This document shows, one piece after another, positions 3 through 30,665 of a stretch of DNA of 64,000 nucleotides. This DNA is from Chitinophagales bacterium. Its GTDB lineage: Bacteria > Bacteroidota > Bacteroidia > Chitinophagales > BACL12. The translations under genes were made by a program, and so were the position numbers. The DNA is taken from positions 814 to 64,813 of the forward strand of contig JACJXO010000010.1 of assembly GCA_020636645.1 (NCBI GenBank), written 5' to 3'. Position 1 is the first letter of the stretch; every line of letters begins with the position of its first letter. Below the pieces are notes generated by a model that worked only from the letters and a program-made list of their open reading frames with translations, did no database searches and was not told where the DNA came from.

Positions 3-1655
3 GAATTGCTTACATGCAGTGGCCAAAACTATCAATGGGCAAAAAGCATTGGCGGGATTTTATACGAAAACAGCATGGACATTGCCTTAGACAATGAAGG
101 AAATATTTATGCTTGTGGTCAATTTGAGGGTACAATAGATTTTGATCCCGGACCAGGAGTTTCCAATCTGACTAGTAAAGGGTTCACTGATATTTTTGTC
201 TTAAAATTGGATTCAGCAGGAAATTTTCTATGGGCAAAAAGTATGGGTGGAAGTAGTAATGATATAGGTTCATCTATTGCTTTGGATGACTCTGCTAATA
301 TTTGTATCACGGGCTACTTTTCTGATACAGTTGACTTTGATCCTGGACCAGGAATTTCCAATCTGACAAGTATAGGTTTCAGTGATATTTTCGTCTTAAA
401 GCTTGATTCCTCTGGCAATTTCTTATGGGCAAGGGGGATGGGTGGAAGTAGTTATGAAGTTGGCATATCCATCGGCCTTGAAAGTACAGGTAATATTTAC
501 GTGGCGGGCCATTTCTTTGGTACAGCTGACTTTGATCCCGGTCCGGAAACTAATAATTTGATCAGTCTTGGTTCAGCAGATATATTCATATTGAAGTTAA
601 ACTCATCGGGTAATTTTATCTGGGCAAAAAGTATGGGAGGTGGGGCTTACGTAAGTGTTAGTGATATGTCAGTAGATGGCTTTGGGAATGTTCACACAAT
701 TGGCAGTTTTTCCAACGAGATTGACTTGGATCCAGGGGTTGGAACAAGTATTTTGACCGCTTTGGATGCTGACGATATTTATATATCAAAACTGGATTCA
801 TCAGGAAACTACCTTTGGGCAGTGGGTATAGGTGGATTTTATCCTGACTATGGTACTTCCATTGCAGTAGACAACTCTGGAAATGTTTTTGCTACAGGTC
901 TATACGAAAATTCCGTTGACTTTGACCCGGGATTAGAAACTTTTTATTTAGTAAGCTATGGGAGAACAAGGGATATTTTTATACTTAAACTGGATGTTGA
1001 CGGTAATTTTGTTTGGGCAAAAAGCATAGGTGGGAATGATTCTGATAGCGGTGCTTCAATTGCAGTGGATGGCTCCAATAACCTTTACGTCAACGGGAGT
1101 TTCAGTTGGACCGTTGACTTTGACCCAGGAGACGAAATAAGTAATTTAATCAGCAATGGCTTGTCAGATATTTTTATTTTAAAGCTGGATTCACTAGGTA
1201 ATTTCGTTTGGGCGAAAGGTGTGGGCGGAACTTCCTCCGATGGTAGTAATAATATTGCCTTAGATGGTAATGGCAATGTTTACACAACGGGTACCTATAG
1301 AGAAATTGTTGACTTCGACCCGGGAGAGGGAGTAAGCGATTTTACAAGTGAGGGGTCAACTGATATGTATATCCTGAAACTTGGACCAACCATTATGGCT
1401 GTCTTGGAAAATAGTTTTGAGAATGGCTTGACTATTTACCCTAACCCTACTAGTAGCATTATAAATTTGGATATGGGTACAAGCTATGATGAATTGTATA
1501 TAGTAATTAGAAATCAGTTAGGACAAGAGGTTTTAGAGAAATCGTTTAGCGGTGCAAACCCATTGCAATTCAATATAGAAGGAACGGCTGGAATATATTT
1601 CATAGAAATAAGCTCCGGAAACAAAAGAGCAACACTAAAAATAGTTAAAGAATGA
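3..1655 (+). CDS. SBBP (beta-propeller) repeat protein with T9SS type A C-terminal sorting domain; 5' end runs off the window
   Basis: The frame is open to the window edge and there is no signal peptide at the listed start. About 10 tandem ~47-aa units of the form DIFVLKLDSSGNFLWAK..GG...IA.D..GN.Y..G.F...DFDPG. The tail IYPNPTSSIINL...IYFIEISSGNKRATLKIVKE is a Por sorting tail. AT-rich composition. Confidence 0.85.
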   Translation, partial: ELLTCSGQNYQWAKSIGGILYENSMDIALDNEGNIYACGQFEGTIDFDPGPGVSNLTSKGFTDIFVLKLDSAGNFLWAKSMGGSSNDIGSSIALDDSANICITGYFSDTVDFDPGPGISNLTSIGFSDIFVLKLDSSGNFLWARGMGGSSYEVGISIGLESTGNIYVAGHFFGTADFDPGPETNNLISLGSADIFILKLNSSGNFIWAKSMGGGAYVSVSDMSVDGFGNVHTIGSFSNEIDLDPGVGTSILTALDADDIYISKLDSSGNYLWAVGIGGFYPDYGTSIAVDNSGNVFATGLYENSVDFDPGLETFYLVSYGRTRDIFILKLDVDGNFVWAKSIGGNDSDSGASIAVDGSNNLYVNGSFSWTVDFDPGDEISNLISNGLSDIFILKLDSLGNFVWAKGVGGTSSDGSNNIALDGNGNVYTTGTYREIVDFDPGEGVSDFTSEGSTDMYILKLGPTIMAVLENSFENGLTIYPNPTSSIINLDMGTSYDELYIVIRNQLGQEVLEKSFSGANPLQFNIEGTAGIYFIEISSGNKRATLKIVKE

Positions 1656-13133: not shown

Positions 13134-15638
13134 TTGCTGATCCTATCCCCCTCCGTGCACGCCCAGGAGCTGATCACTAAGGTATGGGAGCATACCACAG
13201 GTGCCCCTGACACGGTCTACAGCCGTATAGACACCAGTACCACCACAGATGATACGCTGGCCAGGATAGACATGGGATTTATAGGCAGCAGCACCACCAA
13301 GGAGATCATGAAGACCACCAGCCAGGGCGGCGAGTACAGGAATTTCTTCCTGGCACACACCGGTGCAGATGGCGTGACCAACGTACAGAAAACCGACGGG
13401 CTATACACCAAAGACCTCTACCCCAAGGTGGACCTGATGCACTATTTTGACCAGGCAGGGGTGAAATTCTACCTCATCATCCAGCCCGGCTACAGCCAGC
13501 AGAACGACCCTATAGAAATGGTGTTCAACGGAGCAAGCATCACATTCAATGCCGACACCACCCTGACCCTGGAAACCGAGATAGGCGGTATCACCCTCAG
13601 AAAACCCGAAGCCTACGAGATAGAGACAGACGGCAGCCGCACCGACCTGACCTGGCACCCGGAGTACACCGATGAAGGAAGTGGGGTAGTGGGGATGTCA
13701 CTGGGTAGCTACACGACCAGCAAGGTGTTGGTGCTGGAATTTGGGGTGGAGAAGGAATTACTTGAAGAAGGTGGCGGAGACGATAATGTAGTTTGGTCAA
13801 CAATTGTTGGAGGAAGTGGGTATGAAAGACTGTATGATCTGGTTAGCACAAATAATGTTGACTATGCTGTAACTGACTTTTTGTACACTGTTGGGGTTGC
13901 CTACGATACGGAATTTCCGGAATCTCTGCTTTTCATAAATACCAGTGTGGGCGATTTTGACATCTTTGTTCAGCAGTTTCAAATTGACGATGAACCATTG
14001 GGCAAACCCATGTGGGGCCTTTATCTAGGAGGTAGTAATGAGGATGGACATGAACTTTACTACGCTCTTTCCAAAACCACCTACCCAAAAATTGCCAGAT
14101 CTCCATGGGTGCACGGAGAAGAGAGTTTATTGGGCGCCTATATAGTTGGTACTACGTGGTCTGAAGATTTTCCAACTGTTGATTTTAACTCGGCCAGCAC
14201 AGAAGACTATTTTGTTGATGAGTTTCCGGAGGGCATTCTGATGGCAGGTTTTATTACCAGGGTAGATGCGGCTGGGTTACCTATTTGGTCCACCTATATT
14301 GCCGGGGAAGGTACTTATACATGGACTACGAATGTTGAAACAAGCAGCGACCTGGTCTATATTTGTGGGGCAAGCGACGGGGAAGGCGATTTTGTATTGT
14401 ACGATCCGGATGGAGCCGGCCCTGCCTATAGTGAGTCTGACGGAACAGCCTACATTGCGGCATTTTCGCACAATGCCATTTTGCAATGGGGTACCATGAT
14501 AGGGGGAAATACCTATGCACCGATTGGAGAATACGGAACGGCTATTGCTGTTTCAAATGAAGGAGAAATTTATCTTAGTGGCAATACTGTATCAGGCAGT
14601 TTTCCTACAACAACCGGAGCATTTCAGGAGACATTTGGTGGCGGCGGCACCTCCGTGTACGACGCATTTCTGGTAAAGTTTGAAGATGATTTTTCATTGG
14701 AATGGGCCACCTATCTTGGCGGTGAGAATCAGGATTATTCCACAGGTATTGCTACAGATGATGACGGAGATGTCTTTCTTGTAGGATACACCAATGACGT
14801 ATCAGAAGACTTGCCGGTGCAGACGACATACCCATCCGGCAGCGATTATTACTTTGATGATTCGTACAATGATACTGACGAAATGGATGGGTTAATTGCC
14901 GAATTTGATACTGATGGTGATATTAAACTATTGACTTATTTCGGAGGTGATAATCGAGATTTGATCTATGACATATCATTTAGCCACCAATACAAACTTA
15001 TGGCATTTACCGGTCTTTCTCTTAGTTCCTATAGCAGTTTCCCCACCAGAGACCTGGATGGCACCTATTTTCTCGCGAGTAAACCGGGTGATATTTCCAT
15101 ATTCATGGGAATCATTGACCAGGATAATATCTGGCATTACAGCAGCTTTGTGGGAGGCACCGCTGATGGCTGGGGTATGGGTGTGTATTGCGGCTGGGAT
15201 TACTACTTTAATACCGGGTATTTGGCGTTTTTTGATGAGTCTGAGACGTTTGATCCACTAGTTGATACAGATGTGGGGGATGAGTGTTGGTATCAAACGG
15301 AGCCATTAAGCTTTGCGGATCCAAGCACTGAAGGTTATCCAAATTATGAATCTTATATTTCAGTCTATAACTACGAACCATTCCCTGAAATAGTCCCGAC
15401 TGGTCTAAGCACAATAAACAGTGCAGGCATCAATATTTTTCCAAACCCAACTACTGAATGGGTAAATATAAGTACCTGTACTGCATTCATCCTGGATGTT
15501 TTCAATTCAAACGGATCAATGGTATTTTCCTGTGTTTCATGTAAACAGGTTGATGTAAGTAATTGGCCTAAAGGAGTCTATTTGGCTAATATTGTTTCGG
15601 ACAATGAAGTTTCCCACTTTAAAATCATAGTGCAATGA
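13134..15638 (+). CDS. SBBP-repeat protein with T9SS type A sorting domain; the true 5' end is ambiguous (ATG at 13052 is out of frame)
   Basis: SBBP units (DAFLVKFEDDFSLEWATYLGGENQDYSTGIATDDDGDVFLVGYT). Tail INIFPNPTTEWVNI...GVYLANIVSDNEVSHFKIIVQ. TTG start as listed. The frame is open upstream to 13056 and encodes a signal-peptide core there. Confidence 0.8.
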   Translation: MLILSPSVHAQELITKVWEHTTGAPDTVYSRIDTSTTTDDTLARIDMGFIGSSTTKEIMKTTSQGGEYRNFFLAHTGADGVTNVQKTDGLYTKDLYPKVDLMHYFDQAGVKFYLIIQPGYSQQNDPIEMVFNGASITFNADTTLTLETEIGGITLRKPEAYEIETDGSRTDLTWHPEYTDEGSGVVGMSLGSYTTSKVLVLEFGVEKELLEEGGGDDNVVWSTIVGGSGYERLYDLVSTNNVDYAVTDFLYTVGVAYDTEFPESLLFINTSVGDFDIFVQQFQIDDEPLGKPMWGLYLGGSNEDGHELYYALSKTTYPKIARSPWVHGEESLLGAYIVGTTWSEDFPTVDFNSASTEDYFVDEFPEGILMAGFITRVDAAGLPIWSTYIAGEGTYTWTTNVETSSDLVYICGASDGEGDFVLYDPDGAGPAYSESDGTAYIAAFSHNAILQWGTMIGGNTYAPIGEYGTAIAVSNEGEIYLSGNTVSGSFPTTTGAFQETFGGGGTSVYDAFLVKFEDDFSLEWATYLGGENQDYSTGIATDDDGDVFLVGYTNDVSEDLPVQTTYPSGSDYYFDDSYNDTDEMDGLIAEFDTDGDIKLLTYFGGDNRDLIYDISFSHQYKLMAFTGLSLSSYSSFPTRDLDGTYFLASKPGDISIFMGIIDQDNIWHYSSFVGGTADGWGMGVYCGWDYYFNTGYLAFFDESETFDPLVDTDVGDECWYQTEPLSFADPSTEGYPNYESYISVYNYEPFPEIVPTGLSTINSAGINIFPNPTTEWVNISTCTAFILDVFNSNGSMVFSCVSCKQVDVSNWPKGVYLANIVSDNEVSHFKIIVQ

Positions 15639-16357
15639 AAGCTTTGTTGTTCGCATTATTTATATATAGAAGTATATGTTGTCTGGGCCAATGGACGGAG
15701 ATATCAAATTTGCCTTTGATCAGTACACCTGGTGAGGGCTTTTCGGATATAATTTTTATGAATGATAGTGTAGGGATTATTCCATACAGCAATGTCATTC
15801 TTCGTTCCACAGACAAAGGCTATACCTGGGATACGGTGTACCAGGAAGCCACTGGAGCCTGTAAGTATAGCAAAGTATTATTACAGCGGTGGGTCGCCGG
15901 ACTGGTTATGAAGAGTTTACAACTTAAATAGGGGTTCATGATTATGGTTTGACTTCTGACCGAAATGTGATATTGTGGGGGAGACCATTGGAAAAACTGA
16001 CAGCTTGGGGTACAATAGAAGGTCCACGGTTCCGCTTATACATGAAAGAGCAGGAAGGCCTTTTGCTGAATACGCTGGAAATGATGATTTGTCATTACTG
16101 GAAGATTTTCCAGAGGATTGGCTTTTATGTATTACCAACAATGACTGCAGGGGATCATTCATTTACAACACAATGAGAAATTAGCACTGGATATATTTTA
16201 TCGGTAGAAGAATTTCAATATAGATGGAGAACCTAACAGGAAGATTTTGATCTGTTTCCATAAATAGTGGACAATGGAAATATTGCTAGTTCTTGTAATA
16301 GAGTTGGTAACTACACATTATTCTATTTGGAGGTGGAGATGAATACATACTTGCCAA
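15635..16357 (+). pseudogene. decayed paralog of the BNR/Asp-box propeller cargo genes
   Basis: The first 80 aa align with the 20089 gene (ILRSTDKGYTWDTVYQEATGACKYSKV vs ILRSVDKGYTWDTVYQEATGACKFSKV). After that come a stop at 15929, deletions and frame changes. DNA homology persists (ggggttcatgattatgg..., ggaggtggagatgaatacatactt). No sorting domain remains. Confidence 0.75.
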
Positions 16358-16385: not shown

Positions 16386-17210
16386 GTGCAGTGGTGTATG
16401 AATACATACAGTGCTTCAGAACCATATTATAATGAAGGATTTTTAATTAAAATGGATGAAGATGGCGATTTGTTATGGTCAACATATTATGGGGGTGATG
16501 GGCAAGATTGGATTTTTGATATTGCTACTGATGGAAGACTAATTGCTATTACTGGTGCCGTCAGAGATGAAAATGATGTGTATCCATTGGTTGATTATTC
16601 AGGAACCTATTTTGATGATGTAATAGATGTTAACAATGAGGAAAATGAAGTTTCTTCCTATATCGCTGTCTTTGACCGCAATACGGAATTGATCTGGTCC
16701 ACTTTTTTAGGTGATAAAGCTTCTTCTGCCGGCCATGGTGTCAGTTTTGATCCGGCAACTGATGTGCAAAGACGATTGTTTGTGGCAGGAGCCATATCTT
16801 ATGAGCATGACGATTATCTGACCTTTGAACCTTTATGCGATCCGGGCTTTGGGGGATACTACCACGATGAACCACTTGAGTACATTCCAGATCATCCATA
16901 TGCTAATGCTGATGGATTTATTTTAGGGTTTGATATTGATGGTTTCCCGGAAGATCCACCAGTCGGTTTAGAATTTCTAAACAATGAAGATTTACATATA
17001 TACCCTAATCCGACTGAAGGACAAATAGTGATAAGTACAACGAAAGAAGTTGAACGAATTCAAGTGTTTTCAATTACTGGTCAGTTGATCTATAGGACTC
17101 ATGGAAATAATAAAATCCTGGATCTTGGAAATATTTCAAATGGAATGTACCTTATTGAAGTTATGGTGGAGGGTGTTGCCTATGCCGAAGAAATAATATT
17201 GAACAGATGA
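16386..17210 (+). CDS. 5'-truncated SBBP-repeat fragment with its own T9SS sorting domain (probably a non-exported remnant)
   Basis: GTG start and no signal peptide. Homologous to the C-terminal third of the 834-aa SBBP protein (GFLIKMDEDGDLLWSTYYGGDGQDW). Tail IYPNPTEGQIVI...GMYLIEVMVEG. Confidence 0.6.
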   Translation: MQWCMNTYSASEPYYNEGFLIKMDEDGDLLWSTYYGGDGQDWIFDIATDGRLIAITGAVRDENDVYPLVDYSGTYFDDVIDVNNEENEVSSYIAVFDRNTELIWSTFLGDKASSAGHGVSFDPATDVQRRLFVAGAISYEHDDYLTFEPLCDPGFGGYYHDEPLEYIPDHPYANADGFILGFDIDGFPEDPPVGLEFLNNEDLHIYPNPTEGQIVISTTKEVERIQVFSITGQLIYRTHGNNKILDLGNISNGMYLIEVMVEGVAYAEEIILNR

Positions 17211-18460
17211 GAAACATCCTTTTATTTCTGATGTGCTGTTGCAGTCAGGCCTATTCCCAATGGAACCTATCAGTTACTACTGATATTGGTTCATTTTCTG
17301 ATATTGAAGTTGCGCCGGATGGTACTGTTTACGCACTTACTGTAGGCAAGATTTATCGTTCAACCGATTTTGGCGAAACCTGGACAATAGAATCTAGTTG
17401 GGGAAATGGCGCAACCAAGATCCAGTTTGTGTCTGCAGATACAGGTTACGTATGCTGTGGGTTGGAGGACTATGAAGAAAATCACCTGATGACGATTGAT
17501 GGGGGGCTTACCTGGGCTCCTTGTGGCAATGATATCAGTCTGGGAATAAATGATATTGAATATCTGCCAGATGAGGTTGTTGTGGCAGCGACCAGGTTCT
17601 TTCCTACCTGGGTCACTGTTGGGGCCTACTGTCAATCAACTATTTGGCAGGACTCTCTGGCCACCATGGGTGAAGTGTATGATCTGGATGTACTCAATGA
17701 CTCGGTAATGTTTATGTGTGGTGCAATAGATCCCCCAGATCCTTTTGCCTTTAGCACAACCATTAAATCAATCGATGGCGGTAATCACTGGCAGGTAAGT
17801 GGTGATGGTATTGAAGTGCCCTATTTTGGTATGGACTGGCCTACAGATTCTGTAGGCTATGGAAATGGCTTGACCGATATGTATAAGACCACAGACCAGG
17901 GAGAGACCTGGTTCAAACTGCCCAATCCTTTTGGAGAGGATATTTATACATATTACTACCAAACACCATTTTTTATTGACAGAAATATCGGTTATGCAGG
18001 GGCTTACAGATACGATCCTGAAACTATTGAACCACATGAATCACTCGGCATTTTAAGGTCTGATAATGGAGGAGAAAGTTGGATATTAACTGATATGCCA
18101 GAAGAAGCAGATACTGGTGCGGAGGTCGATTGTTGGAATGCTGATACTTGTTTTTTTAGATATTCTAAGTATGTGTATCGCACAACTAATGGTGGTGGCA
18201 TAGGAGAACCACTAGAAATACCAGGTCAGCAGCATTTATCCCTCACCCTCCACCCCAACCCCGCCACTGATCAGCTATTCCTAGAAGGACTGGCCAGCTA
18301 CCCGGATGCCGTGTGGAGCACCTGCTCCATTAGCGGGCAGACCATCCCCCTTGATCTCCGGAACGGTCAGGCAGATATCAGCCACCTGCCCCCCGGCATT
18401 TATCTCACCACCGTACAAACCCGGCAAGGCATATGGAGAGAGAAATGGGTGAAGTTGTGA
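17207..18460 (+). CDS. BNR/Asp-box beta-propeller (Ycf48/sialidase-like fold) T9SS cargo, paralog 1
   Basis: Asp-boxes STDFGETW, TIDGGLTW, SIDGGNHW, TTDQGETW and SDNGGESW. Signal peptide. C-terminal sorting domain is supplied by the GC-rich cassette. ATGA overlap with the upstream ORF. Confidence 0.85.
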   Translation: MRNILLFLMCCCSQAYSQWNLSVTTDIGSFSDIEVAPDGTVYALTVGKIYRSTDFGETWTIESSWGNGATKIQFVSADTGYVCCGLEDYEENHLMTIDGGLTWAPCGNDISLGINDIEYLPDEVVVAATRFFPTWVTVGAYCQSTIWQDSLATMGEVYDLDVLNDSVMFMCGAIDPPDPFAFSTTIKSIDGGNHWQVSGDGIEVPYFGMDWPTDSVGYGNGLTDMYKTTDQGETWFKLPNPFGEDIYTYYYQTPFFIDRNIGYAGAYRYDPETIEPHESLGILRSDNGGESWILTDMPEEADTGAEVDCWNADTCFFRYSKYVYRTTNGGGIGEPLEIPGQQHLSLTLHPNPATDQLFLEGLASYPDAVWSTCSISGQTIPLDLRNGQADISHLPPGIYLTTVQTRQGIWREKWVKL

Positions 18461-18504
18461 AAAGACCACAGAGTCCCCTGCGGTTGACTCTGTGGGGACG
18501 GAAT
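18239..18504 (+). repeat. 266-bp GC-rich CTD-stop-hairpin cassette, copy 1
   Basis: About 12 mismatches against copy 2 over 266 nt (hand alignment). Encodes SLTLHPNPATDQLFLEGLASYPDAVWS..GIYLTTVQTRQGIWREKWVKL, a stop codon and a hairpin. Confidence 0.9.
18466..18495 (+). terminator. conserved stem-loop CCACAGAGTC-N10-GACTCTGTGG (copy 1)
   Basis: Perfect 10-bp stem 5 nt after the stop codon. No U-tract on the + strand. Confidence 0.45.
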
Positions 18505-18711
18505 CCTGCAAGTAATCAAATAAATGTAATTTCTACTATTGCCAACTATGACAGGGTAGAAATATATAATTTGAATGGCCAAAAGATACTTGAATTCACA
18601 AATGTTTCTGGTACCCAATCGCTGAATATTGCAATTCTTCCTTCAGGCCTATATGTACTTGCCATCGTTCATAGTGAAACAATGGATTATACTAAATTCA
18701 TTAAGCAATGA
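18505..18711 (+). pseudogene. orphaned AT-rich T9SS sorting domain displaced by cassette copy 1
   Basis: Translates as PASNQINVISTIANYDRVEIYNLNGQKILEFTNVSGTQSLNIAILPSGLYVLAIVHSETMDYTKFIKQ, a complete CTD-like tail with no body of its own. It ends in an ATGA overlap with the next gene. Confidence 0.75.
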
Positions 18712-20000
18712 AAGTTGTTTTCATTTTACCACTAATGATTGCTCAAACACTATTCGGTCAATGGGAAGTTGTATATGATTTCCCTTCAGTGAGCAGTATA
18801 GATGATATTAGCTATGACCTTGAGTATAATGGACTAGATAAATTATTTCTGACAAAAATTGGGAAATTGTTAGTCAGTGAAGATTGGGGTACTACCTGGG
18901 ATACTTCGTATGTATCTGGTGAACAGGGTCAGTTTCGTGAAATAGTATTCAGTCACCCCGATACAGGTTACATAGTTAAATCAGGAGGCCCGGGTCTGTT
19001 TCTGAGAACTGTTGATGCCGGAGAGACCTGGGAAACGATTACACCTGTTTCCGGTGCATATTCGGAAGAAGCCACATCTGTGTTTGTACTGGATAAAGAC
19101 CACCTCTTTTTTTCAATCTGGGACGGCGCTTCCGGAAAAATAGTCTGGACTAATGATGGTGGCTTGACCACACAATTAGCCTACCCTGAAATTTGGCAAC
19201 CCTCCGGCATATCCGGAATGGCATGTAAGGATACAGATACCTGTGTAGCCCTTTCTGGATACCCTTACTTGTTTGGTGGTGGCGATGGTAATGATGGAAT
19301 TTGCCCGGTGTATAGAACCGACTCATGTTGTAACGAATGGGCGTATACTAGCTGGACTTACTTTGGGACGCAAAAACTGATATACAGAAGCTGGAATTTG
19401 ATGTACACTTATACCTCTCTTTATGTGTTCAGGTCTTTTGATCAGTTCCAAACCTGGGATACCATCATGGCTTATGAAGACATAAATGATCATTTCTGGG
19501 AGCTTCACTTTGTAAATGATTCGGTTGGATACCTGTCAACTTCAAGAATTTATCCTGGTAGCGATGTACCTGGCCGTGTGCTGAGAACAACAGATTATGG
19601 AGACACCTGGGAGGAGACAACCTTTGATTGGTCAGCATTAAACCCCGATACACTTGTTATAGGAACTAGTACTGCAATTGAATGTATTGATGAAAACAAT
19701 TGTTTTTTAATGTTGGGCCGTACCTTGTTCAGAACCACCAATGGCGGTCTGGCAAGCACATATGATATCGCATCACTTTCCCTCACCCTCCACCCCAACC
19801 CCGCCACTGATCAGTTACTCCTGGAAGGGCTGGCCAGCTACCCGGATGCCGTGTGGAGCACTTACTCCATTAGCGGGCAGACCATCTCCCTTGACCTCCG
19901 GAACGGGCAGGCAGATATCAGCCACCTGCCCCCCGGCATTTATCTCACCACCGTACATACCCGGCAAGGCATATGGAGAGAGAAATGGGTGAAGTTGTAA
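18708..20000 (+). CDS. BNR/Asp-box beta-propeller T9SS cargo, paralog 2
   Basis: Asp-boxes SEDWGTTW, TVDAGETW and TTDYGDTW. Signal peptide. The cassette CTD is at the 3' end. Confidence 0.85.
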   Translation: MKVVFILPLMIAQTLFGQWEVVYDFPSVSSIDDISYDLEYNGLDKLFLTKIGKLLVSEDWGTTWDTSYVSGEQGQFREIVFSHPDTGYIVKSGGPGLFLRTVDAGETWETITPVSGAYSEEATSVFVLDKDHLFFSIWDGASGKIVWTNDGGLTTQLAYPEIWQPSGISGMACKDTDTCVALSGYPYLFGGGDGNDGICPVYRTDSCCNEWAYTSWTYFGTQKLIYRSWNLMYTYTSLYVFRSFDQFQTWDTIMAYEDINDHFWELHFVNDSVGYLSTSRIYPGSDVPGRVLRTTDYGDTWEETTFDWSALNPDTLVIGTSTAIECIDENNCFLMLGRTLFRTTNGGLASTYDIASLSLTLHPNPATDQLLLEGLASYPDAVWSTYSISGQTISLDLRNGQADISHLPPGIYLTTVHTRQGIWREKWVKL

Positions 20001-20044
20001 GAAGACCACAGAGTCCCCTGCGGTTGACTCTGTGGGGACGGAAT
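19779..20044 (+). repeat. 266-bp CTD-stop-hairpin cassette, copy 2
   Basis: Hand alignment to copies 1 and 3 gives about 95% identity. The gene body immediately upstream is unrelated at the DNA level. Confidence 0.9.
20006..20035 (+). terminator. conserved stem-loop (copy 2)
   Basis: Identical to copy 1 (CCACAGAGTC CCCTGCGGTT GACTCTGTGG). Confidence 0.45.
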
Positions 20045-20088
20045 GTTATAACACATGCAGAGGTTAAACAATTTAAATTTATCAAACA

Positions 20089-21348
20089 ATGAGAAGTCTT
20101 GTAATTGCTTTAATTCTAGGCTTCTTCTCTATAGGGAAAGGTCAATGGTATGAGATATCAAATTTGACTGAGGTGTATAGTTTGGGAGGCACTTTTAGAG
20201 ATATGGTGTTTCTTAATGACAGTGTTGGCATTGTACCATATGAAAGTATTATTCTTCGTTCTGTAGACAAAGGCTATACCTGGGACACTGTATATCAAGA
20301 AGCTACGGGTGCTTGTAAATTCAGTAAGGTAGAATTTTATAATGAGCAGGTTGGCCTCGCCCGGACTTTTTTTGGACTTATGGAAGGAGTTCGTACCGAA
20401 GACGGAGGATTAACTTGGGAGGCGGTACCGGGGTCTCATGATTATGAAAGCTTTGATTTTCTGACCGAAGATGTGATTTTGTGGGGGGAGACCAATCTTT
20501 GGAAAAAAAGCCTGTCGGAGCCTTGGGAGTACACCTTAGATGGTCCACCGGTTACCAGTTTATACATGTTTAATATAGATGTTGTGGACCAGGACACGGC
20601 CTATATTGCTACGGGAATATCGCTGTGGAAATATATGGGGGATGATTCGATTGTGCTTTCTGATAATAAGAGCTGTGGAGACGTATTTTTCCCCTCAGCA
20701 AGGATTGGCTACTATACAGATGTAGAGACAATTTACCGAACAATAGACTATGGGCACAGCTGGGATACATTGCCATTTACTTATATTATAAATGCAAAAA
20801 ATACAGAAATACCATATATTAATAGCATGCAATTCGTGTCAGATAGTATAGGTTTTTTGCGAACTTATGAAGATAATCTAGGAGAGTTAAATGATGTTGG
20901 GGTACTGTGGAGAACGATTGATGCTGGCTGGACATGGGATACCATATTTAGTTCAATCTTTATACCCGAAGAGGAATATGGCGGCGTTGTTAGTTTTTAC
21001 TTTATTAGCCCTGAAACAGGATGGGCACTAACGAATAAGGGACATTTATTCTATACTACTACAGGAGGTGGAGATGAATATATACTTCTACCTCCAACAG
21101 TGTCTGTTCAACATGCCGGCAGCCTTCCCCTCACCCTCCACCCCAACCCCGCCACTGATCAGCTATTCCTGGAAGGGCTGGCCGGCTACCCGGATGCCGT
21201 GTGGAACACTTACTCCATTAGCGGGCAGACCATCCCCCTTGATCTCCGGAACGGTCAGGCAGATATCAGCCACCTGCCCCCCGGCATTTATCTCACCACC
21301 GTACATACCCGGCAAGGCATATGGAGAGAGAAATGGGTGAAGCTGTAA
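20089..21348 (+). CDS. BNR/Asp-box beta-propeller T9SS cargo, paralog 3
   Basis: Asp-boxes SVDKGYTW, TEDGGLTW, TIDYGHSW and TIDAGWTW. Signal peptide. The cassette CTD is at the 3' end. Confidence 0.85.
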   Translation: MRSLVIALILGFFSIGKGQWYEISNLTEVYSLGGTFRDMVFLNDSVGIVPYESIILRSVDKGYTWDTVYQEATGACKFSKVEFYNEQVGLARTFFGLMEGVRTEDGGLTWEAVPGSHDYESFDFLTEDVILWGETNLWKKSLSEPWEYTLDGPPVTSLYMFNIDVVDQDTAYIATGISLWKYMGDDSIVLSDNKSCGDVFFPSARIGYYTDVETIYRTIDYGHSWDTLPFTYIINAKNTEIPYINSMQFVSDSIGFLRTYEDNLGELNDVGVLWRTIDAGWTWDTIFSSIFIPEEEYGGVVSFYFISPETGWALTNKGHLFYTTTGGGDEYILLPPTVSVQHAGSLPLTLHPNPATDQLFLEGLAGYPDAVWNTYSISGQTIPLDLRNGQADISHLPPGIYLTTVHTRQGIWREKWVKL

Positions 21349-21392
21349 GAAGACCACAGAGTCCCCGGTGGTTGACTTTGTAGGGACGGAAG
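21127..21392 (+). repeat. 266-bp CTD-stop-hairpin cassette, copy 3
   Basis: About 14 mismatches against copy 2 (hand alignment). Confidence 0.9.
21354..21383 (+). terminator. conserved stem-loop (copy 3, slightly degenerate)
   Basis: CCACAGAGTC CCCGGTGGTT GACTTTGTAG. One position becomes a G-U pair and there is one near-terminal mismatch. Confidence 0.35.
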
Positions 21393-21578
21393 CTCCTCAT
21401 CCCGATAGCCAGGTTTCACCACTCACTCGCAGTAAAGTGAGGGGTGAAAGGTGAATGGGCGGGCTCTTCAAATTAGTATTGGCCGGCTCATTGTAGCATT
21501 TCTCCATTCCTGATCGTCATCACACGTTGTTTTCGCAACCACCCAATACCTCATTCTCTGATGATCTCATTATGCCTC

Positions 21579-24527
21579 TTATTTTCCTGCCGGCCCCTTC
21601 TCTTCCATGAAACTTTCATAGACCACATCCATCATGCGGTTGCGGATGTCTTCGCGGCTGAGCATGTTTGGATCTGCGGTTGGCTGCACCCGGTTGGAAA
21701 GGAAGACGAACAACACATCATTGACCGGATCGGCCCAGACGCAGATGCCCGTGAAACCCTGATGTCCGTAAGTGGCAGCACTGGCGTACTTGCCTGCCGG
21801 ACTGCTTTTGGACGGATCGGTCTCGGGTTTGTCCCAACCTAATCCGCGGCGGGAAACACGGCTCTGTTTTTTAGTGAAGAGCTCCACTGTTTCCGGTTGG
21901 ATATACTGCACACCTCCGTAGCTGCCACCGTTGAGCAGCATGGTGAACAGGACCGAGAGGTCATCGGCCGTGCTGAATAATCCTGCATGTCCTTCCACAC
22001 CTCCCATCATGGCTGCACCCATGTCGTGCACGTAGCCATGCACGGTCTGGTAGCGGAAGTAGTTATCATTCTCAGTAGGAACGATCTCCTTCTTCTGAAA
22101 ACGTTCCAGCGGATTGTAACAGGTGCGTTCCATACCCAGTGGAGTATAGAAATTCCGGTACACATATTCATCCAGGGTCATTCCACTTAGCTGTTCCACA
22201 ATGCGTTTACCGATGTACATGGTGAGGTCGCTGTATTTATATGACCCTTTTGTTTTCAGCGGTGTCTGCGTGATCTGCGCCCAGATACTGTCGCGGTAGT
22301 CATCCCGCATGTAAATGTTATCGGCCACTTTGATGGTGAACCCCGGGATCTTTGCCTGGTTGTAATATCTCGGATCCAGCGAACCATCGGCCAGCAGTGT
22401 CTGCTTATAGAATGGTATCCACGGCGTGAGTCCTGCCTGGTGGGTGAGTACATCCTGCATCAGCAGCGGACCTACAACCGTCCCCTTTGTATCCGGCAGA
22501 TAATCCTGCACGTATTTGTCGGGACGAAATTTCCCCTCATCATACAGCTTCATCATCGCCAGAGTGGTAGCGGCTACTTTAGATACGGAAGCAAGATCAT
22601 ACAGCGCATTGGCTGGTATCGGTGTTTTCTTGTCATACAGGTAGGTGCCGTAGGTCTTGTCCCAAACAACCCGCCCGTCCTTCATCACCAGCAGGGTCAC
22701 ACCTGGTGCCGCTTTCACATCGATGCAGAACTTCGCCAGTGAGTCCAGTCGCTGGAGCACATCCAGGCGCATGCCTACATCTTCCGGAATTCCGTATTGT
22801 ACACGACCGAGAGAGGCTGTCTGTAGTCCATCTCCCGGACGATAGTTTCCGCTTCCCACAGGCAGGCCGCCGGAAAATGGTTTTGCACCGAACAATGCTT
22901 CTGCCACGCACTGCTGCGTATAGTTTTCATCGTCATATGCCACCACGATATTGGCAGCATCCGGGAATAATCCGGCAGCATAGGGACTGCCATATAACAC
23001 GACGGTGACCGGCACAAAACCGGCCAGGTCTGCAACGAGATTCCTGGTAGAACTGCCCACGCCGAAATTGGAAGCAGCACTGCGTTTCATATCATCCACA
23101 CCAACAATGACCCGGTCATAGCCCTTCAGTTTGTTGGCCATGTCAGTGAAAGAAGAGCTGCCCGCTTCGCTGCTCAGTACAAAATGGGTGGCATGCGAAT
23201 AGTGATCCAGGTGCTTCTGCCAGTTGGCCACGCTGCCGTTTCCGATGTGAAGTGTGGCGATGGATATTGTAGCATCCTGTAAAGGCCAGATGCTGTCCTG
23301 TCCAAGCAGCGTGATACTTTGCTCGGTGAGTTCTCTTTTCAGTTTTTTAGCCTCATCCGTATTCAGGTCCTGTACAATGTTCTGTACCCTGACCGGTTCG
23401 TAATGATCGAGGCCGGTGAAAGCCTTGGCTTTGAGAATACGCACCACGCTTTCATCGAGACGCTGCATGGAGATGCGACCATCATCCACCGCTTTTTTGA
23501 TGGCATTGAAAGCGGTAGGTACGTCCTGGCTGAACAACAAGACATCATTACCTGCCAGGAATGCTTTCACCTCCAGTTCACCCGGATCGAAGTGAGCTGC
23601 CACACCCTGCATGTTGAGGGCATCGCTGAATACCAGTCCCCGGAAATTCAGACTGTCGCGAAGCAGGTCTCTTCCCACTTTAGTAGAAAGTGAAGATGCC
23701 TGTCCGGGTGTATCATCGAGTGCAGGAATGAAGAGGTGAGCCAGCATGATACTGCCCAGTCCCTGGTTCATCAGGATGCTGAAGGGGAAGAGCTCGAGCG
23801 TGTCCAGTCGCTCTCTTGAATGGTTGATTACCGGTAAGGTCTTGTGGCTGTCGGCATCGGTATCGCCGTGCCCGGGAAAGTGCTTGCCACAGGCGATGAT
23901 ACCATTCTCCTGCAGGCCGTTCATATAGGCCATACCCTTGAGAGCCACGTTGAATTTGTCTTCTCCGAAGGAACGGTCGCCGATGACCGGATTCTTTGGG
24001 TTGCTGTTCACATCGATGACCGGTGCAAAGTCCACCTGCACGCCCAGCCGTTTCAGCATACGGGCGATCTCGGCTCCGGTGCGGTAGATGAGGCTGTCGT
24101 CCTGCACAGCACCCCAGGTGAGCTGACGCTGGAAGCTGGCAACAGAATCGAGCCGCATGGCGGGACCCCACTCGGCATCCATGGCGGTGAGCAGCGGAAT
24201 GGATGCTATGCTCTGGTAAGTGTTGGTGAGGCGTGCCTGTCTGACCGGACCACCCTGCATGAAGATGAGTCCGCCGATCTTATAGTCACGGATGAGTTTG
24301 CTGATTGCTTGTTGGTGTGCGGCATCTTTGTTGGAATAAGCCGCCACCATGAAGAGCTGCCCGATCTTTTCCTCGACGGTCATGGTCTCCATGAGTGAAT
24401 CCACCCACTGGTAGTTGCGCTCATAGAAAGGCACGAAGGGCGGACTGTCATTACCCGGCATGACGGTGTGCGACGAGGGATTGGCCATGCCAACGGTCAG
24501 AATAAGTATGCCCAGGTATCGGATCAT
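21579..24527 (-). CDS. fusion protein: GH3 beta-N-acetylhexosaminidase (NagZ-like) N-terminal domain plus class C beta-lactamase/PBP-like serine hydrolase C-terminal domain
   Basis: GH3 motifs KIGQLFMV and KHFPGHGDTDADSH. Serine hydrolase SxxK (ASVSKVAAT). Start moved to MIRYLGILILTV (24527), because the track's upstream extension runs through a low-complexity repeat. Confidence 0.85.
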   Translation of the reverse strand: MIRYLGILILTVGMANPSSHTVMPGNDSPPFVPFYERNYQWVDSLMETMTVEEKIGQLFMVAAYSNKDAAHQQAISKLIRDYKIGGLIFMQGGPVRQARLTNTYQSIASIPLLTAMDAEWGPAMRLDSVASFQRQLTWGAVQDDSLIYRTGAEIARMLKRLGVQVDFAPVIDVNSNPKNPVIGDRSFGEDKFNVALKGMAYMNGLQENGIIACGKHFPGHGDTDADSHKTLPVINHSRERLDTLELFPFSILMNQGLGSIMLAHLFIPALDDTPGQASSLSTKVGRDLLRDSLNFRGLVFSDALNMQGVAAHFDPGELEVKAFLAGNDVLLFSQDVPTAFNAIKKAVDDGRISMQRLDESVVRILKAKAFTGLDHYEPVRVQNIVQDLNTDEAKKLKRELTEQSITLLGQDSIWPLQDATISIATLHIGNGSVANWQKHLDHYSHATHFVLSSEAGSSSFTDMANKLKGYDRVIVGVDDMKRSAASNFGVGSSTRNLVADLAGFVPVTVVLYGSPYAAGLFPDAANIVVAYDDENYTQQCVAEALFGAKPFSGGLPVGSGNYRPGDGLQTASLGRVQYGIPEDVGMRLDVLQRLDSLAKFCIDVKAAPGVTLLVMKDGRVVWDKTYGTYLYDKKTPIPANALYDLASVSKVAATTLAMMKLYDEGKFRPDKYVQDYLPDTKGTVVGPLLMQDVLTHQAGLTPWIPFYKQTLLADGSLDPRYYNQAKIPGFTIKVADNIYMRDDYRDSIWAQITQTPLKTKGSYKYSDLTMYIGKRIVEQLSGMTLDEYVYRNFYTPLGMERTCYNPLERFQKKEIVPTENDNYFRYQTVHGYVHDMGAAMMGGVEGHAGLFSTADDLSVLFTMLLNGGSYGGVQYIQPETVELFTKKQSRVSRRGLGWDKPETDPSKSSPAGKYASAATYGHQGFTGICVWADPVNDVLFVFLSNRVQPTADPNMLSREDIRNRMMDVVYESFMEEKGPAGK

Positions 24528-24895
24528 GTGAGTAGGTGCAGACAAAACGCTGTGAATGTGAAATAGTATGTGCTGCTGGGTGCAAATGTAGGGAGGGGAA
24601 CGGGGAAGGTGGAAGGGTGGAAGGTGGAAAAGAGGAAAAACGGAGGTCGGAACTCGAAATTCGGAATGTGAGGGGATCCTGACCACATCTTTGAAATTGC
24701 CTGGTGTCCTTTGTGCCTCCTTTGCGTCTTCGCGTTAGCATGCAGAACACGATGACACGATTAAGGCACGAAGCGCACGAAGGACTTCATTGAAGGATGC
24801 GCCAAATAATTGAATGTCTTTCCGGGCAGGGAGTCTCCCTTTCAGAGATGGAATCTACCTCAAATTACTTCGCAGAAATCTACTGTCTTAAAAAA

Positions 24896-24925
24896 CCACA
24901 GAGTTCCTTTCAGGTAACTCTGTGG
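24896..24925. repeat. fourth copy of the stem-loop family, intergenic, with a compensatory base-pair change
   Basis: CCACAGAGTT CCTTTCAGGT AACTCTGTGG followed by GGGAC as in the other copies. A-run on the 5' side, which is a U-run if read on the minus strand. Confidence 0.6.
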
Positions 24926-25181
24926 GGACAAAAAGAGAAAAGCGGAATACGAAATGCGGAGTTCGGAATGGGAGGGGAAGGGTTTAAGGTGGAAAACCGG
25001 GAAAAGTTCGTAATCGGCTCAAGGTAGCAATCGGGATTGATGTTACCGGTCCGATCGGAGGTCAATTCAACTCAGCTACCTGTCTCTCCGGGCTTGACCC
25101 GGAGTCTCCTTCATTGGTGAAAGAAACAGCAAGCCCAATCAGCTGAACCTAAAAAGAATCTTGTTCATTGGTATATCTTAG

Positions 25182-25691
25182 ATGCCTCGTAATGAACTGC
25201 AAAAGACCACCACAGTGACATTCTTTTGGCCAAGTCTGATATACTCCTTTTCTTTTTTGTTTAGCTATTGTGATGATCAGCAAGACAGCCTTGAACTATT
25301 TATTTTTCCTCCCAGTAACTGCTATTTTGTGCTAAGCCTGACAGAAGGTACTGTGTACGCTTCAAGCATCACCTATATATATGGTGAGGATGAGCCGTAT
25401 GACCTTGTGGATTCCAGCATTGTATCTATCCAGGGTAAGATTTCTGCCCTGAAAACCGATAGTATTAACCTCTTGCTCGATTCTAATATTAATGGGTTCT
25501 CGACCGAAGATCCACAGTTAAGGAAGTACGATGGGTTTCAGTCTAAAATTATTATTGGACAGAGAGCCTTCTTTCCTGTTGGCAATGATGTTGTTTGCAT
25601 GCAGGATATCGCCAGGATCTTGTCTGATTGCATCCATTATGAAGAATTAGGTTGTCATGAGTATTTTGATCTTTTGCGTCTTTCTGATTAG
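25182..25691 (+). CDS. hypothetical protein (AT-rich, possible lipoprotein)
   Basis: Hydrophobic N-terminus ending FLFSYC. No recognisable domain. Composition resembles the other AT-rich blocks. Confidence 0.45.
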   Translation: MPRNELQKTTTVTFFWPSLIYSFSFLFSYCDDQQDSLELFIFPPSNCYFVLSLTEGTVYASSITYIYGEDEPYDLVDSSIVSIQGKISALKTDSINLLLDSNINGFSTEDPQLRKYDGFQSKIIIGQRAFFPVGNDVVCMQDIARILSDCIHYEELGCHEYFDLLRLSD

Positions 25692-29577: not shown

Positions 29578-30665
29578 TGAAACTGGGCAGGATCTTACTG
29601 GCAATTGTTACTGTGGCTGCGTCTGCAGCACTGGTGTTGTCATATAGTTCCAGGTTCATTTCGCCGTCTGCACTTTGGTACACTGCCCTGTTCGGCCTGG
29701 CATATTTTCCTATACTTTTGGTCTTCCTCCTGCTCACAGTGCTCTGGTTCTTTGTGCACAAAAGGGTATTCTGGATCCTGCTGGTGTTGCTGCTCATAGG
29801 TTGGCCGGCGCACCGTACCAGCTTTGCCATGGGGAAAAAAAATACGGAGCCGGCAGATTCCCTGCAGACATTTTCAGTGGCTACTTTTAATACCAAAGGC
29901 TTCGATCTCAATGCAAAGGAGCCGGACCGCGAATCGGTCATGAAGACCATACTGGAGGCCGATGCGGACATCATCTGCCTCCAGGAGTTCAATTCCTGGA
30001 AGAAGGAAGGTATGCCCAATAACAGGCAGGAAATTGCCGATGGTACCGGACTTCCTTACCAGTACTACCACAAGTCATACGAGAACAGAAAGAAGACCAG
30101 AAGTTACGGCCTGATCATCTACAGCCGTTTCCCGATACTGAAGTATGGTGAACTGGATTACCCTGCAATCAGCAAACTCAATACCACCATCTGGGCTGAC
30201 ATACTGATCTATGGCGATACCATCCGCCTCTTCTCCACCCACCTGCAATCGAACCAGCTGACCCACAGCGATTTTGAGTTCATAGACCAGACAGGAAGCA
30301 GCGATACGCTCAGTTTTGAACCGGCCAGGGTGGCAAATAAGCTTCGTGACAGCTATAAATTGCGTGCAGAACAGGTGGAGGTGATCAGACAGGCCCTGGA
30401 TGCCAGTCCGCACCCGGTGCTGTTCTGCGGCGATTTCAATGATACGCCCGTTTCTTACGCATACCGTAAGATCAGCGAAGGTCTGGATGATGCTTTTCTG
30501 CATTGTGGCCGAGGACTGGGAGCTACGTATTCGCCTGCTCCGCTCATACGGATCGACTATATGCTCTATACGCCGGCAGTGCTCAAAGCACTGGATTATG
30601 AACGAAGAAGGTCAGCCGGATCAGATCATTACCTCGTGAGATCGGTATTCAGTCTGCAGCCTTAA
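29577..30665 (+). CDS. membrane-anchored endonuclease/exonuclease/phosphatase (EEP) family protein
   Basis: N-terminal TM helices. EEP motifs DIICLQE, CGDFND and SDHYLV. Confidence 0.85.
   Translation: MKLGRILLAIVTVAASAALVLSYSSRFISPSALWYTALFGLAYFPILLVFLLLTVLWFFVHKRVFWILLVLLLIGWPAHRTSFAMGKKNTEPADSLQTFSVATFNTKGFDLNAKEPDRESVMKTILEADADIICLQEFNSWKKEGMPNNRQEIADGTGLPYQYYHKSYENRKKTRSYGLIIYSRFPILKYGELDYPAISKLNTTIWADILIYGDTIRLFSTHLQSNQLTHSDFEFIDQTGSSDTLSFEPARVANKLRDSYKLRAEQVEVIRQALDASPHPVLFCGDFNDTPVSYAYRKISEGLDDAFLHCGRGLGATYSPAPLIRIDYMLYTPAVLKALDYERRRSAGSDHYLVRSVFSLQP

Follow-up and report, generated by a model that had tools for sequence, protein, structure and literature searches.

We analysed a 64,000-nt stretch of an uncultured Chitinophagales genome (GenBank assembly GCA_020636645.1, contig JACJXO010000010.1, positions 814 to 64,813, hereafter the window), in which three consecutive genes for β-propeller proteins (genes 1, 2 and 3) each end in a nearly identical block of 266 nt. 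Every copy of the block is composed of 73 codons of a C-terminal domain (CTD) resembling those recognised by the type IX secretion system (T9SS), a stop codon and a hairpin. Comparison with related metagenomic contigs argues that this block is native to the propeller family, and that recombination probably keeps it uniform. The coordinates of the genes, the blocks and the neighbouring features are collected in Table 1.

A repeat search of the window returned a single family, with three copies of 268 nt (18236–18503, 19776–20043 and 21124–21391) that are each 95% identical to the reference copy, and BLAST between the block copies gave 95.5% identity, or 12 differences over 264–266 nt. In an alignment of the three copies, identity begins at T/C-CC CTC ACC CTC CAC CCC AAC CCC GCC, encoding (S/P)LTLHPNPA, and ends just after GGGACGGAA in all three. 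The original prediction, made from this sequence before any comparison, had described three copies at about 95% identity with abrupt edges at (S/P)LTLHPNPA and just past a stem-loop, in which the export tag, the stop codon and the 3′ hairpin act as one unit, and all of this is borne out. Copies 1, 2 and 3 score 23.7, 28.7 and 25.3 bits, respectively, against TIGR04183 (T9SS type A sorting domain; cutoff 23), with the match spanning the last 68 residues. Since PF18962 gives 22.5–24.9 bits on the same CTDs, under the Pfam cutoff of 27, the sorting-domain match is borderline, reaching the TIGR04183 cutoff at the extreme C-terminus. The hairpin has the form CCACAGAGTC-N10-GACTCTGTGG with a 10-bp stem, and its folding energy is −19.6 kcal/mol in copy 1 and −18.5 kcal/mol in copy 2 but only −13 kcal/mol in copy 3, which carries two stem changes. 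Codon 37 of the CTD (18347–18349, 19887–19889 and 21235–21237) has four alleles (P, S, Y and F) among copies of the window species' CTD type, which makes it the most variable position of an otherwise homogenised domain.

Upstream of the block, the bodies of genes 1–3 (CTD removed) are 28–30% identical to each other in amino acids, with no detectable DNA match among them, in agreement with the earlier description of them as distant paralogs. Judged by profiles alone, the propeller matches are weak overall: gene 1 reaches 29.2 bits against BNR and gene 2 reaches 30.9 bits against PSII_BNR (cutoff 27 in both cases), gene 3 stays under threshold, and the match of gene 2 to Ycf48 in the PDB (E=2.5e-7) extends across about 95 residues only. 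The N-termini, MRNILLFLMCCCSQAYSQW, MKVVFILPLMIAQTLFGQW and MRSLVIALILGFFSIGKGQW, resemble Bacteroidota signal peptides ending before Q. In composition, the bodies have 40–43% GC and a GC content at third codon positions (GC3) of 0.34–0.37, the coding part of the block has 59–60% GC and a GC3 of 0.71–0.75, and the backbone genes have 52–54% GC and a GC3 of 0.63–0.66. The predicted contrast of AT-rich bodies with a GC-rich block therefore stands, while the likening of the block to the backbone does not, the block being slightly GC-richer. The AT-rich stretch of the window spans about 13.8–21.1 kb.

Evidence that the tail is old and native to the propellers comes from their orthologs. The closest GTDB representative is the metagenome-assembled genome (MAG) UBA3022 (MutL 74% amino acid identity), and the next are uncultured Chitinophagales at 66–68%. 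In UBA3022, an ortholog of gene 1 (426 aa, 69% amino acid identity) comes after an SBBP gene of 1292 aa. The body of this ortholog is AT-rich (GC3 0.36) and its CTD is GC-rich (GC3 0.66), and the sequence at the junction between the two is that seen in the window. Divergence from gene 1 is about equal in the two parts (body 70% in amino acids; CTD 68% in amino acids and 73% in nucleotides), and the UBA3022 gene is without the hairpin, lies between flanks unrelated to those of the window and has no orphan CTD downstream. A second species, represented by the JGI contigs L148 and L149, has the order MTHFR, SBBP gene, g1-class propeller, hairpin with a shorter remnant, and g2-class propeller, where g1, g2, g3 and gX denote classes of propeller body. 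In distant AT-rich Chitinophagales, propellers end in ...NQADISHLPPGIYFTEVITEQGRAVQKWVKM, recognisably the same domain as the block CTD. Each block copy that we recovered, in the window, in more than 20 ENA contigs and in 6 JGI contigs, caps a propeller of this one family, and the CTDs of other T9SS cargo within the window are only 21–26% identical to that of the block. Judging from these comparisons, the block appears to be this propeller family's own T9SS CTD, old and native, and not a free cassette.

Searches with the block itself returned little. An exact 33-mer from its 5′ end had no match in the GTDB species genomes, so that the species is either unrepresented there or has a representative without the array; a degenerate scan of the GTDB genomes with A[DN]I.HLPPGIY found UBA3022 only; and a protein search with the 73-aa CTD alone gave just two short open reading frames (ORFs), one of which (P0001) is a frameshifted block on a long-read contig. 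As the CTD-only query was insufficient, family members were gathered with the full-length gene-2 protein as query.

We split 27 family members into the body and the last 73 residues and compared all against all. The bodies fall into classes (g1, g2, g3, gX and others), whereas the type of tail depends on the lineage from which the protein comes. CTD type 1 is found on g1, g2, g3 and gX bodies alike in the window species; type 2 is found on both g1 and g2 bodies in the second species, where the proteins P0005 and P0025 have tails with 95% amino acid identity on bodies with 32%; and in a distant lineage, bodies that are 25% identical have in common a CTD type 8 at 84–89%. Between paralog classes within a species, the bodies have 25–34% amino acid identity and the CTD DNA is 90–98% identical, whereas between species the CTD DNA is 68–73% identical, a lower value than for the bodies. 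Contig L149 shows both sides of this pattern, with g1 and g2 CTDs that are 90% identical to each other in DNA but 68–70% identical to the blocks of the window, and with bodies that match the window genes at 66% (g1) and 84% (g2) overall, or 82% and 81% in the BLAST-aligned stretches. The CTDs thus group by species and the bodies by paralog class, which is concerted evolution, and the incongruence between tail and body that the original prediction had named as a mark of conversion or transfer is present.

The arrays vary between strains, as seen in contigs whose backbone is 99.5–99.9% identical to the window. In one array, genes 1, 2 and 3 precede an S8/C14 peptidase gene, with the junction precisely at the hairpin's first base; in another, the peptidase gene follows genes 1 and 2, without gene 3; a third has an extra g1-like gene and a fourth block; a fourth reads MTHFR, a g3-like gene, a novel gX, a g1-like gene, the block and GH3; and the JGI contigs hold further combinations. 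Written in shorthand, the arrays are g1-g2-g3, g1-g2, g0-g1′-g2 and g3L-gX-g1L, always ending in a block, and the gX and g1L cassettes retain their own upstream spacer regardless of the preceding gene. Alleles of the same class within the species have 69–78% amino acid identity, about as distant as orthologs between species. Segments of the bodies also cross species while the tail stays species-specific. Gene 2 is 87–97% identical to its relative in the second species over the last 380 nt of the body, compared with 78% for MTHFR between these two species, and identity then falls to 0.43–0.68 in the middle of the CTD, a region that is about 50–55% identical between species, before it recovers at the CTD end. 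In gene 1, a tract of 288 nt (about 17483–17770) matches UBA3022 at 97% or more and a conspecific g1L allele at 100%, is flanked by stretches at 40–60% identity, and looks like a recent inter-species recombination tract. Most short-read contigs start within this 288-nt tract.

Exchange can also be followed inside the block. In the block alignment the copies are mosaic, with the type switching at different columns in L031, in L032/L036 and in window block 3. The backbone-proximal blocks of L031 and of L032/L036 begin as the g0/g1L type, the change to the backbone-proximal type coming at two different positions within the block, and window block 3 is of the gene-3 type at its start and of the backbone-proximal type at its end. 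The gX block of L031 equals the g0 block of L001 except at one position (C/T in the HPNPA codons), with identical downstream spacers and different bodies. A four-gamete test on nine distinct 230-nt sequences found 66 of 190 informative site pairs to be incompatible, with a minimum number of recombination events (Rm) of at least 5. Exchange points at varying internal positions indicate homologous rather than site-specific recombination. The variable sites of the block CTD are distributed 9/6/17 over the three codon positions, in 16 synonymous and 13 non-synonymous variable codons, and this enrichment at third positions marks the CTD as a constrained coding sequence, though not a frozen one. Between the two routes offered by the original prediction, gene conversion or copying of the block onto each gene, the mosaic blocks and the grouping of tails by species and bodies by class favour conversion, and the copied cassette falls away.

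The propellers are accompanied by genes of the SBBP type, and for both of those upstream of gene 1 (13134–15638 and 16386–17210) the stop codon overlaps the ATG of the next propeller sequence in the tetranucleotide ATGA. In the 834-aa gene, the GC-rich 5′ part (13211–13841) has its ortholog in the middle portion of UBA3022's 1292-aa SBBP gene (blastp, and tblastx against L011), and the remainder is a 43%-identical paralog. The 834-aa gene is a recombinant, in which the signal-peptide region and residues about 28–235 correspond to the ortholog of the 1292-aa gene; about 485 N-terminal residues are missing from it, and these are present in the long-read contig L055 as about 1.4 kb of additional sequence at 13212. 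The fragment that follows has 56% amino acid identity to the N-terminus of gene 3 and 93% nucleotide identity to the gene-3-like allele of L031 and L039, and the SBBP 3′ fragment has 65% amino acid identity to residues 1019–1292 of the UBA3022 protein and scores 40.2 bits against TIGR04183. A further SBBP-repeat T9SS cargo gene lies at the left edge of the window (6–1655), away from the array, with 39–40% GC and an AT-rich CTD, so that low GC may be a general feature of repeat-propeller cargo genes.

Directly after blocks 1 and 2 lie AT-rich pieces of T9SS CTDs, the first of which begins at the NPA motif. Their position recalls the C-terminal displacement of polymorphic toxins (Rhs/CDI), in which a GC-rich tail would have been inserted before the old AT-rich tail and the latter left as an orphan, and on this reading the piece after block 1 would be the displaced native tail of gene 1. 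This origin is rejected, as the piece is homologous to the SBBP-type partner of gene 2: it is 64% identical in nucleotides to a complete AT-rich CTD upstream of a gene-2-like allele in L043 and, like the piece after block 2, its stop overlaps the start of the following propeller (ATGA). The corresponding remnant after the hairpin of the second species is 93 nt shorter than that of the window. Moreover, the block is followed not by a CTD alone but by SBBP interior in L043 (about 1.3 kb of 5′-truncated sequence, joined at window position 14342) and in L039 (about 0.6 kb), and the gene-1 ortholog of UBA3022 has the GC-rich tail with no orphan downstream. Because of the homology to SBBP genes that precede the next propeller, and because of these longer interiors, the pieces are not displaced tails of the preceding propeller; they are the remains of the SBBP-type partner of the next cassette, whereas Rhs/CDI orphans are the former C-terminus of the same gene. 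We consider displacement very unlikely.

The remnants after blocks 1 and 2 are each entered by a bridging ORF. Such an ORF uses the −1 frame relative to the CTD, opens with an ATG within the block and has no stop across the hairpin. Among seven distinct internal junction types (from the window, L031, L044, L149, L043 and L039), six have the bridging ORF in frame with the truncated downstream gene, whereby it closes at the TGA overlapping the ATG of the following propeller; at 1/3 per junction this has a probability of about 0.007, the junctions not all being independent. One guess, prompted by the ATGA overlaps of the intact SBBP–propeller pairs, is that only in-frame truncations survived, with the downstream propeller relying on translational coupling. 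Programmed −1 frameshifting into the bridging frame is not proposed, as no canonical slippery heptamer was found by eye.

Table 1. Genes, block copies, gene remnants and hairpins in and around the propeller array (window coordinates)
Feature	Position	Strand	Description
SBBP/DUF7948 β-propeller T9SS cargo gene	13134..15638	+	834 aa; own AT-rich CTD; Pfam and NCBIfam matches; mosaic
Gene-3-class propeller 5′ fragment (pseudogene)	15635..16044	+	ATG overlaps stop of 834-aa gene
SBBP 3′ fragment	16386..17210	+	Ortholog of UBA3022 U_1292; AT-rich T9SS CTD; stop overlaps gene-1 ATG
Gene 1	17207..18460	+	417-aa BNR/Ycf48-like propeller; putative signal peptide; ortholog of UBA3022 U_426
Block copy 1	18239..18504	+	CTD 18239–18457; stop TGA 18458–18460; hairpin 18466–18495; tail GGGACGGAA to 18504
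Bridging ORF	18433..18711	+	92 aa; runs through hairpin into remnant; ends at TGA overlapping gene-2 ATG
5′-truncated AT-rich T9SS CTD	18505..18711	+	207 nt; TIGR04183 43.9 bits, profile positions 4–72, without the first three
Gene 2	18708..20000	+	430-aa Ycf48-like propeller
Block copy 2	19779..20044	+	CTD 19779–19997; stop TAA; hairpin 20006–20035
Second bridging ORF	19973..20092	+	In frame with remnant after block 2; TGA overlaps gene-3 ATG
44-nt CTD remnant	20045..20092	+	Last 14 codons of AT-rich CTD (...VKQFKFIKQ*); TGA overlaps gene-3 ATG
Gene 3	20089..21348	+	419-aa propeller of the same family as genes 1 and 2
Block copy 3	21127..21392	+	Gene-3-type 5′ part, backbone-proximal-type 3′ part; weakened hairpin 21354–21383; abuts GC-normal backbone
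Solo hairpin	24896..24925	+	Same stem, different loop, then GGGAC; intergenic; −20.8 kcal/mol, z=−4.5

The hairpin also occurs apart from the CTD, and from its distribution it is a separate, dispersed element, which we call REP-like after the repetitive extragenic palindromic (REP) elements. Within the 64 kb of the window, only the array copies and one solo hairpin are visible, while exact-stem copies are found in two MAGs of 37% GC, the Chitinophagales MAG_MBR_AS.25 and the Bacteroidota GFS_13507 (on five and three contigs), several of them adjoined by near-copies within four substitutions. In these MAGs the copies are intergenic, in many cases directly following a stop codon or separating convergent genes, and some form tandems of 2–4 with a spacing of 92–154 bp. 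The family (window, L045, L047–L051, L053 and L054) has the form CCACAGAGT-N12-ACTCTGTGG-GGAC, a 34-nt imperfect palindrome, and in an alignment of 17 copies 91% of cells pair, with three pairs showing compensatory double changes. An Rfam scan of 18000–25500 at permissive thresholds gave no family, and a simple terminator scan did not call the hairpin, because it lacks a T-run on the + strand. It shares with REPs its imperfect palindromy, its conserved tail (GGGAC) and its intergenic placement, frequently close behind a stop codon and either single or in short tandem. It differs in that the GTAG/CGTC tag of the two large REP superfamilies (PMC3733652) is not seen, and in that its stem sequence is conserved from the 37%-GC MAGs to this 50%-GC genome.

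Whatever its origin, the hairpin marks where the block ends. GGGACGGAA is the common right end in at least five junction types, and the right edge is mostly shared in our census of block copies, with three exceptions: the S8 junction (L003), L039, where the join lies inside the loop, and UBA3022, which has no hairpin. REPs are known as join points of duplications, and the shared right edge would be accounted for if deletions or duplications had repeatedly ended at the hairpin's foot. Around the solo hairpin we additionally observed two 49-nt direct repeats (24628–24676 and 24930–24978) that are 73% identical to each other, in a strain-variable stretch (24580–25000) where L032 and L034 have about 100 nt replacing 24580–24739 and L038 has an extra unit. 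Further to the right, 30196–30480 is an indel or variable stretch between L032 and the window, which are otherwise 99.9% identical strains.

The GC-richness of the tail recurs in three lineages. The GC3 of the CTD exceeds that of the backbone by about 0.08 in the window species and by about 0.06 in UBA3022 (0.66 versus 0.60), and in a genome of 34% GC it is 0.36 against a backbone of 0.22–0.29, on a propeller body that is compositionally native (0.21). Since two other T9SS CTDs of this 34%-GC genome match their own bodies in composition, the excess is a property of the homogenised domain and not the amelioration of a foreign gene. GC-biased gene conversion, with raised GC3 in recombining segments, has been hypothesised in bacteria (PMC4450053). 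When alleles were polarised with the other species as outgroup, derived changes from A/T to G/C had a mean frequency of 0.71 (n=4), and changes from G/C to A/T a mean frequency of 0.34 (n=7). The GC3 step would fit GC-biased gene conversion as its cause, a fit that is so far weakly tested; the effect here is local and domain-sized with a very sharp edge, and the evidence is correlative with a small polarised sample. The low GC of the bodies and the SBBP genes could reflect import from AT-rich relatives or mutation bias under diversifying turnover.

We propose that the block is the constant 3′ module of a secreted Ycf48/BNR-like β-propeller multigene family in this uncultured Chitinophagales lineage; this module would comprise the T9SS type A sorting domain native to these propellers, followed by the stop codon and by a REP-like hairpin. 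Recombination probably keeps this CTD and hairpin uniform within a species, with the bodies being shuffled among strains. Gene conversion and unequal crossing-over among co-resident copies would keep the module near-uniform, presumably in dependence on RecA-type recombination, and the AT-rich bodies would be old paralog classes, mosaic and strain-variable, with some segments common between species. A cassette in this scheme would be a spacer with its body, bracketed by two blocks, and therefore crossovers in the blocks could delete, duplicate, reorder or replace cassettes while each gene keeps an intact export signal of the resident type. The end of the hairpin (GGGACGGAA) would act as a recurrent breakpoint, leaving the downstream SBBP partners 5′-truncated to different lengths.

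Several points weigh against this proposal. No conversion event was seen directly. The sharply shared right edge at GGGACGGAA is unexplained by plain homologous recombination and requires a hotspot at the hairpin, which we infer. The test of GC-biased conversion comprises 11 polarised sites, and the CTD of UBA3022 is GC-rich even though a single copy is seen there, so that a multi-copy state is not demonstrably needed for high GC3. The comparison material is all metagenomic, with ‘strain’ and ‘species’ deduced from flanking identity, and some array variants could be assembly products, yet MEGAHIT at k=141 cannot jump identical stretches of up to 110 nt.

A stronger version would make the CTD and hairpin a selected ‘docking module’ for a pool of propellers that crosses species. 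The module would serve as a homology anchor with which to capture, swap and reorder cassettes, including pieces from other species; imports would be re-equipped with the resident T9SS signal, the hairpin would set the cassette edge, the bridging ORF would keep the coupling, and GC-biased conversion would leave the module GC-rich. We offer this version tentatively and think it rather doubtful as a whole.

Little speaks for a mobile tagging cassette, integron-like or resembling a miniature inverted-repeat transposable element (MITE), in which the CTD, stop codon and hairpin would be copied onto foreign genes site-specifically or by transposition, and we think it highly improbable. It would account for the sharp ends common to several junction types, the hairpin at the 3′ end and the foreign composition of the bodies (GC3 0.35 versus 0.64 in the backbone), and the array does recall an integron in its unrelated-looking ORFs of the same orientation, each ending in a structured repeat, and in its strain-variable cassette content. 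However, the block sits on one protein family only, the orthologous genes of two other species carry this tail, at an identical junction, related tails exist in distant AT-rich Chitinophagales, and the other CTDs of the window are unlike it, so that the original idea of a discrete DNA cassette fitted onto foreign AT-rich cargo did not hold up. Amino acid homology extends 1–3 residues upstream of the DNA edge, in different codons (S-L), and the right edge has its three exceptions. The three blocks are without terminal inverted repeats, their sole inverted repeat being the internal hairpin, and no target-site duplication is present in the flanks (CATTTA and TCCTGC, CACTTT and TGTTAT, AGCCTT and GCTCCT, left and right of blocks 1, 2 and 3). 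No recombinase (intI, integrase or transposase) appears in the Pfam lists of genes within about 10 kb on either side, the integron attC core GTTRRRY is absent from the block hairpin as read, and the viral contigs searched contain neither block nor hairpin. Unlike an integron, the repeat here includes 219 nt of coding sequence at 95% identity, while attC is conserved in structure and not in sequence, and the crossovers lie at variable positions within the block, pointing to homologous recombination.

No more credible is an account that dispenses with conversion and has extreme purifying selection hold the T9SS signal constant while the bodies drift. The CTD does look functional, with its excess of third-position variation, and both of its ends are conserved even in distant species. 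But synonymous sites and the non-coding hairpin are homogenised as well, between species the middle of the CTD is less conserved (about 50–55%) than the bodies (66–84% overall), 13 of the 29 variable codons are non-synonymous, and the blocks are mosaic.

That the repeated block is itself an assembly artefact, through collapse or chimerism, has a very small chance of being right. Short-read contigs break at or near the blocks, and an exact look-up of the gene-1 and gene-3 products of the window found neither recorded elsewhere. The window also combines two flanks that are linked elsewhere to different arrays: its left flank (ArsM/ArsR) is linked via SBBP-g1-g2 to the S8 gene in the long-read contig, whereas other contigs connect its right flank (GH3, MutL) with another array, the one beside MTHFR. 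The change from one flank type to the other occurs in block 3, over 90 nt that do not differ between the parental types. Against an artefact, at least nine independent ENA assemblies and one JGI contig again show blocks 1 and 2 as well as the coding part of block 3, each with the differences specific to its copy, the long-read contig contains genes 1 and 2 with their blocks (gene 3 is absent), and the assemblies at k=141 cannot bridge the identical stretches. This recurrence shows that the block is not a collapsed repeat, a doubt that the original prediction had itself raised. The junction of block 3 with GH3 is more delicate. Gene 3 is joined to GH3 in no other assembly, and the passage from the block 3 hairpin to the right flank is uncorroborated elsewhere, so this join may quite possibly be an assembly chimera; the alternative is a real recombinant between loci. 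The three-copy observation is unaffected in either case. Blocks of this kind interrupt the assembly of short reads and can give rise to chimeric joins in MAGs.

A plain recent tandem duplication of the three genes, suggested by their tandem order and similar lengths of about 420 aa and expected by the original prediction to leave bodies more than 90% identical, is refuted by the body identity of 28–30%, each class being closer to relatives in other species than to the others in its own genome, and has next to no probability left.

Concerted evolution by conversion, as we propose it for the propellers, is a mechanism of a known kind, and what differs here is that a T9SS sorting domain and a REP-like hairpin form the constant module. 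The closest evolutionary analogue is found in the Helicobacter pylori genes babA/babB, homA/homB and sabA/sabB, in which the 3′ segment clusters by genome, whereas the 5′ and middle parts cluster by allele across strains; this homogenisation has been attributed to RecA-dependent intragenomic gene conversion among paralogs at several loci, with formation of chimeras (PMC3960876). The bab/hom genes thus show the same grouping of body and 3′ segment as the propellers, but their constant part is a β-barrel membrane anchor, whereas here it is a T9SS sorting domain with a non-coding hairpin, and the propellers also differ in their mostly tandem cassette arrays, the large GC3 excess of the constant part and the inter-species body tracts. 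A precedent for recombination among T9SS cargo genes is provided by rgpA/kgp/hagA of Porphyromonas gingivalis, which share repeated 3′ adhesin modules and a conserved CTD and in which domain rearrangement and allelic exchange by homologous recombination create surface diversity (PMC5266723). The DNA common to the P. gingivalis genes, which are dispersed, is for the most part that of the large adhesin modules, and PMC5266723 describes neither the CTD as the homogenised unit of an array nor a jump in composition.

The array therefore offers a clean natural case in which a type IX secretion signal, and not a membrane anchor or a signal peptide, is the constant region of a variable family of surface or secreted proteins. 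The domain-sharp GC3 step in three lineages provides an unusually local, testable case for bacterial GC-biased gene conversion, and the presence of a species-specific CTD on bodies common between species raises the question of whether CTD recognition has a species-specific component. For the organisms themselves, the arrays suggest that the T9SS cargo repertoires of environmental Chitinophagales diversify via the shuffling of cassettes around the sorting domain.

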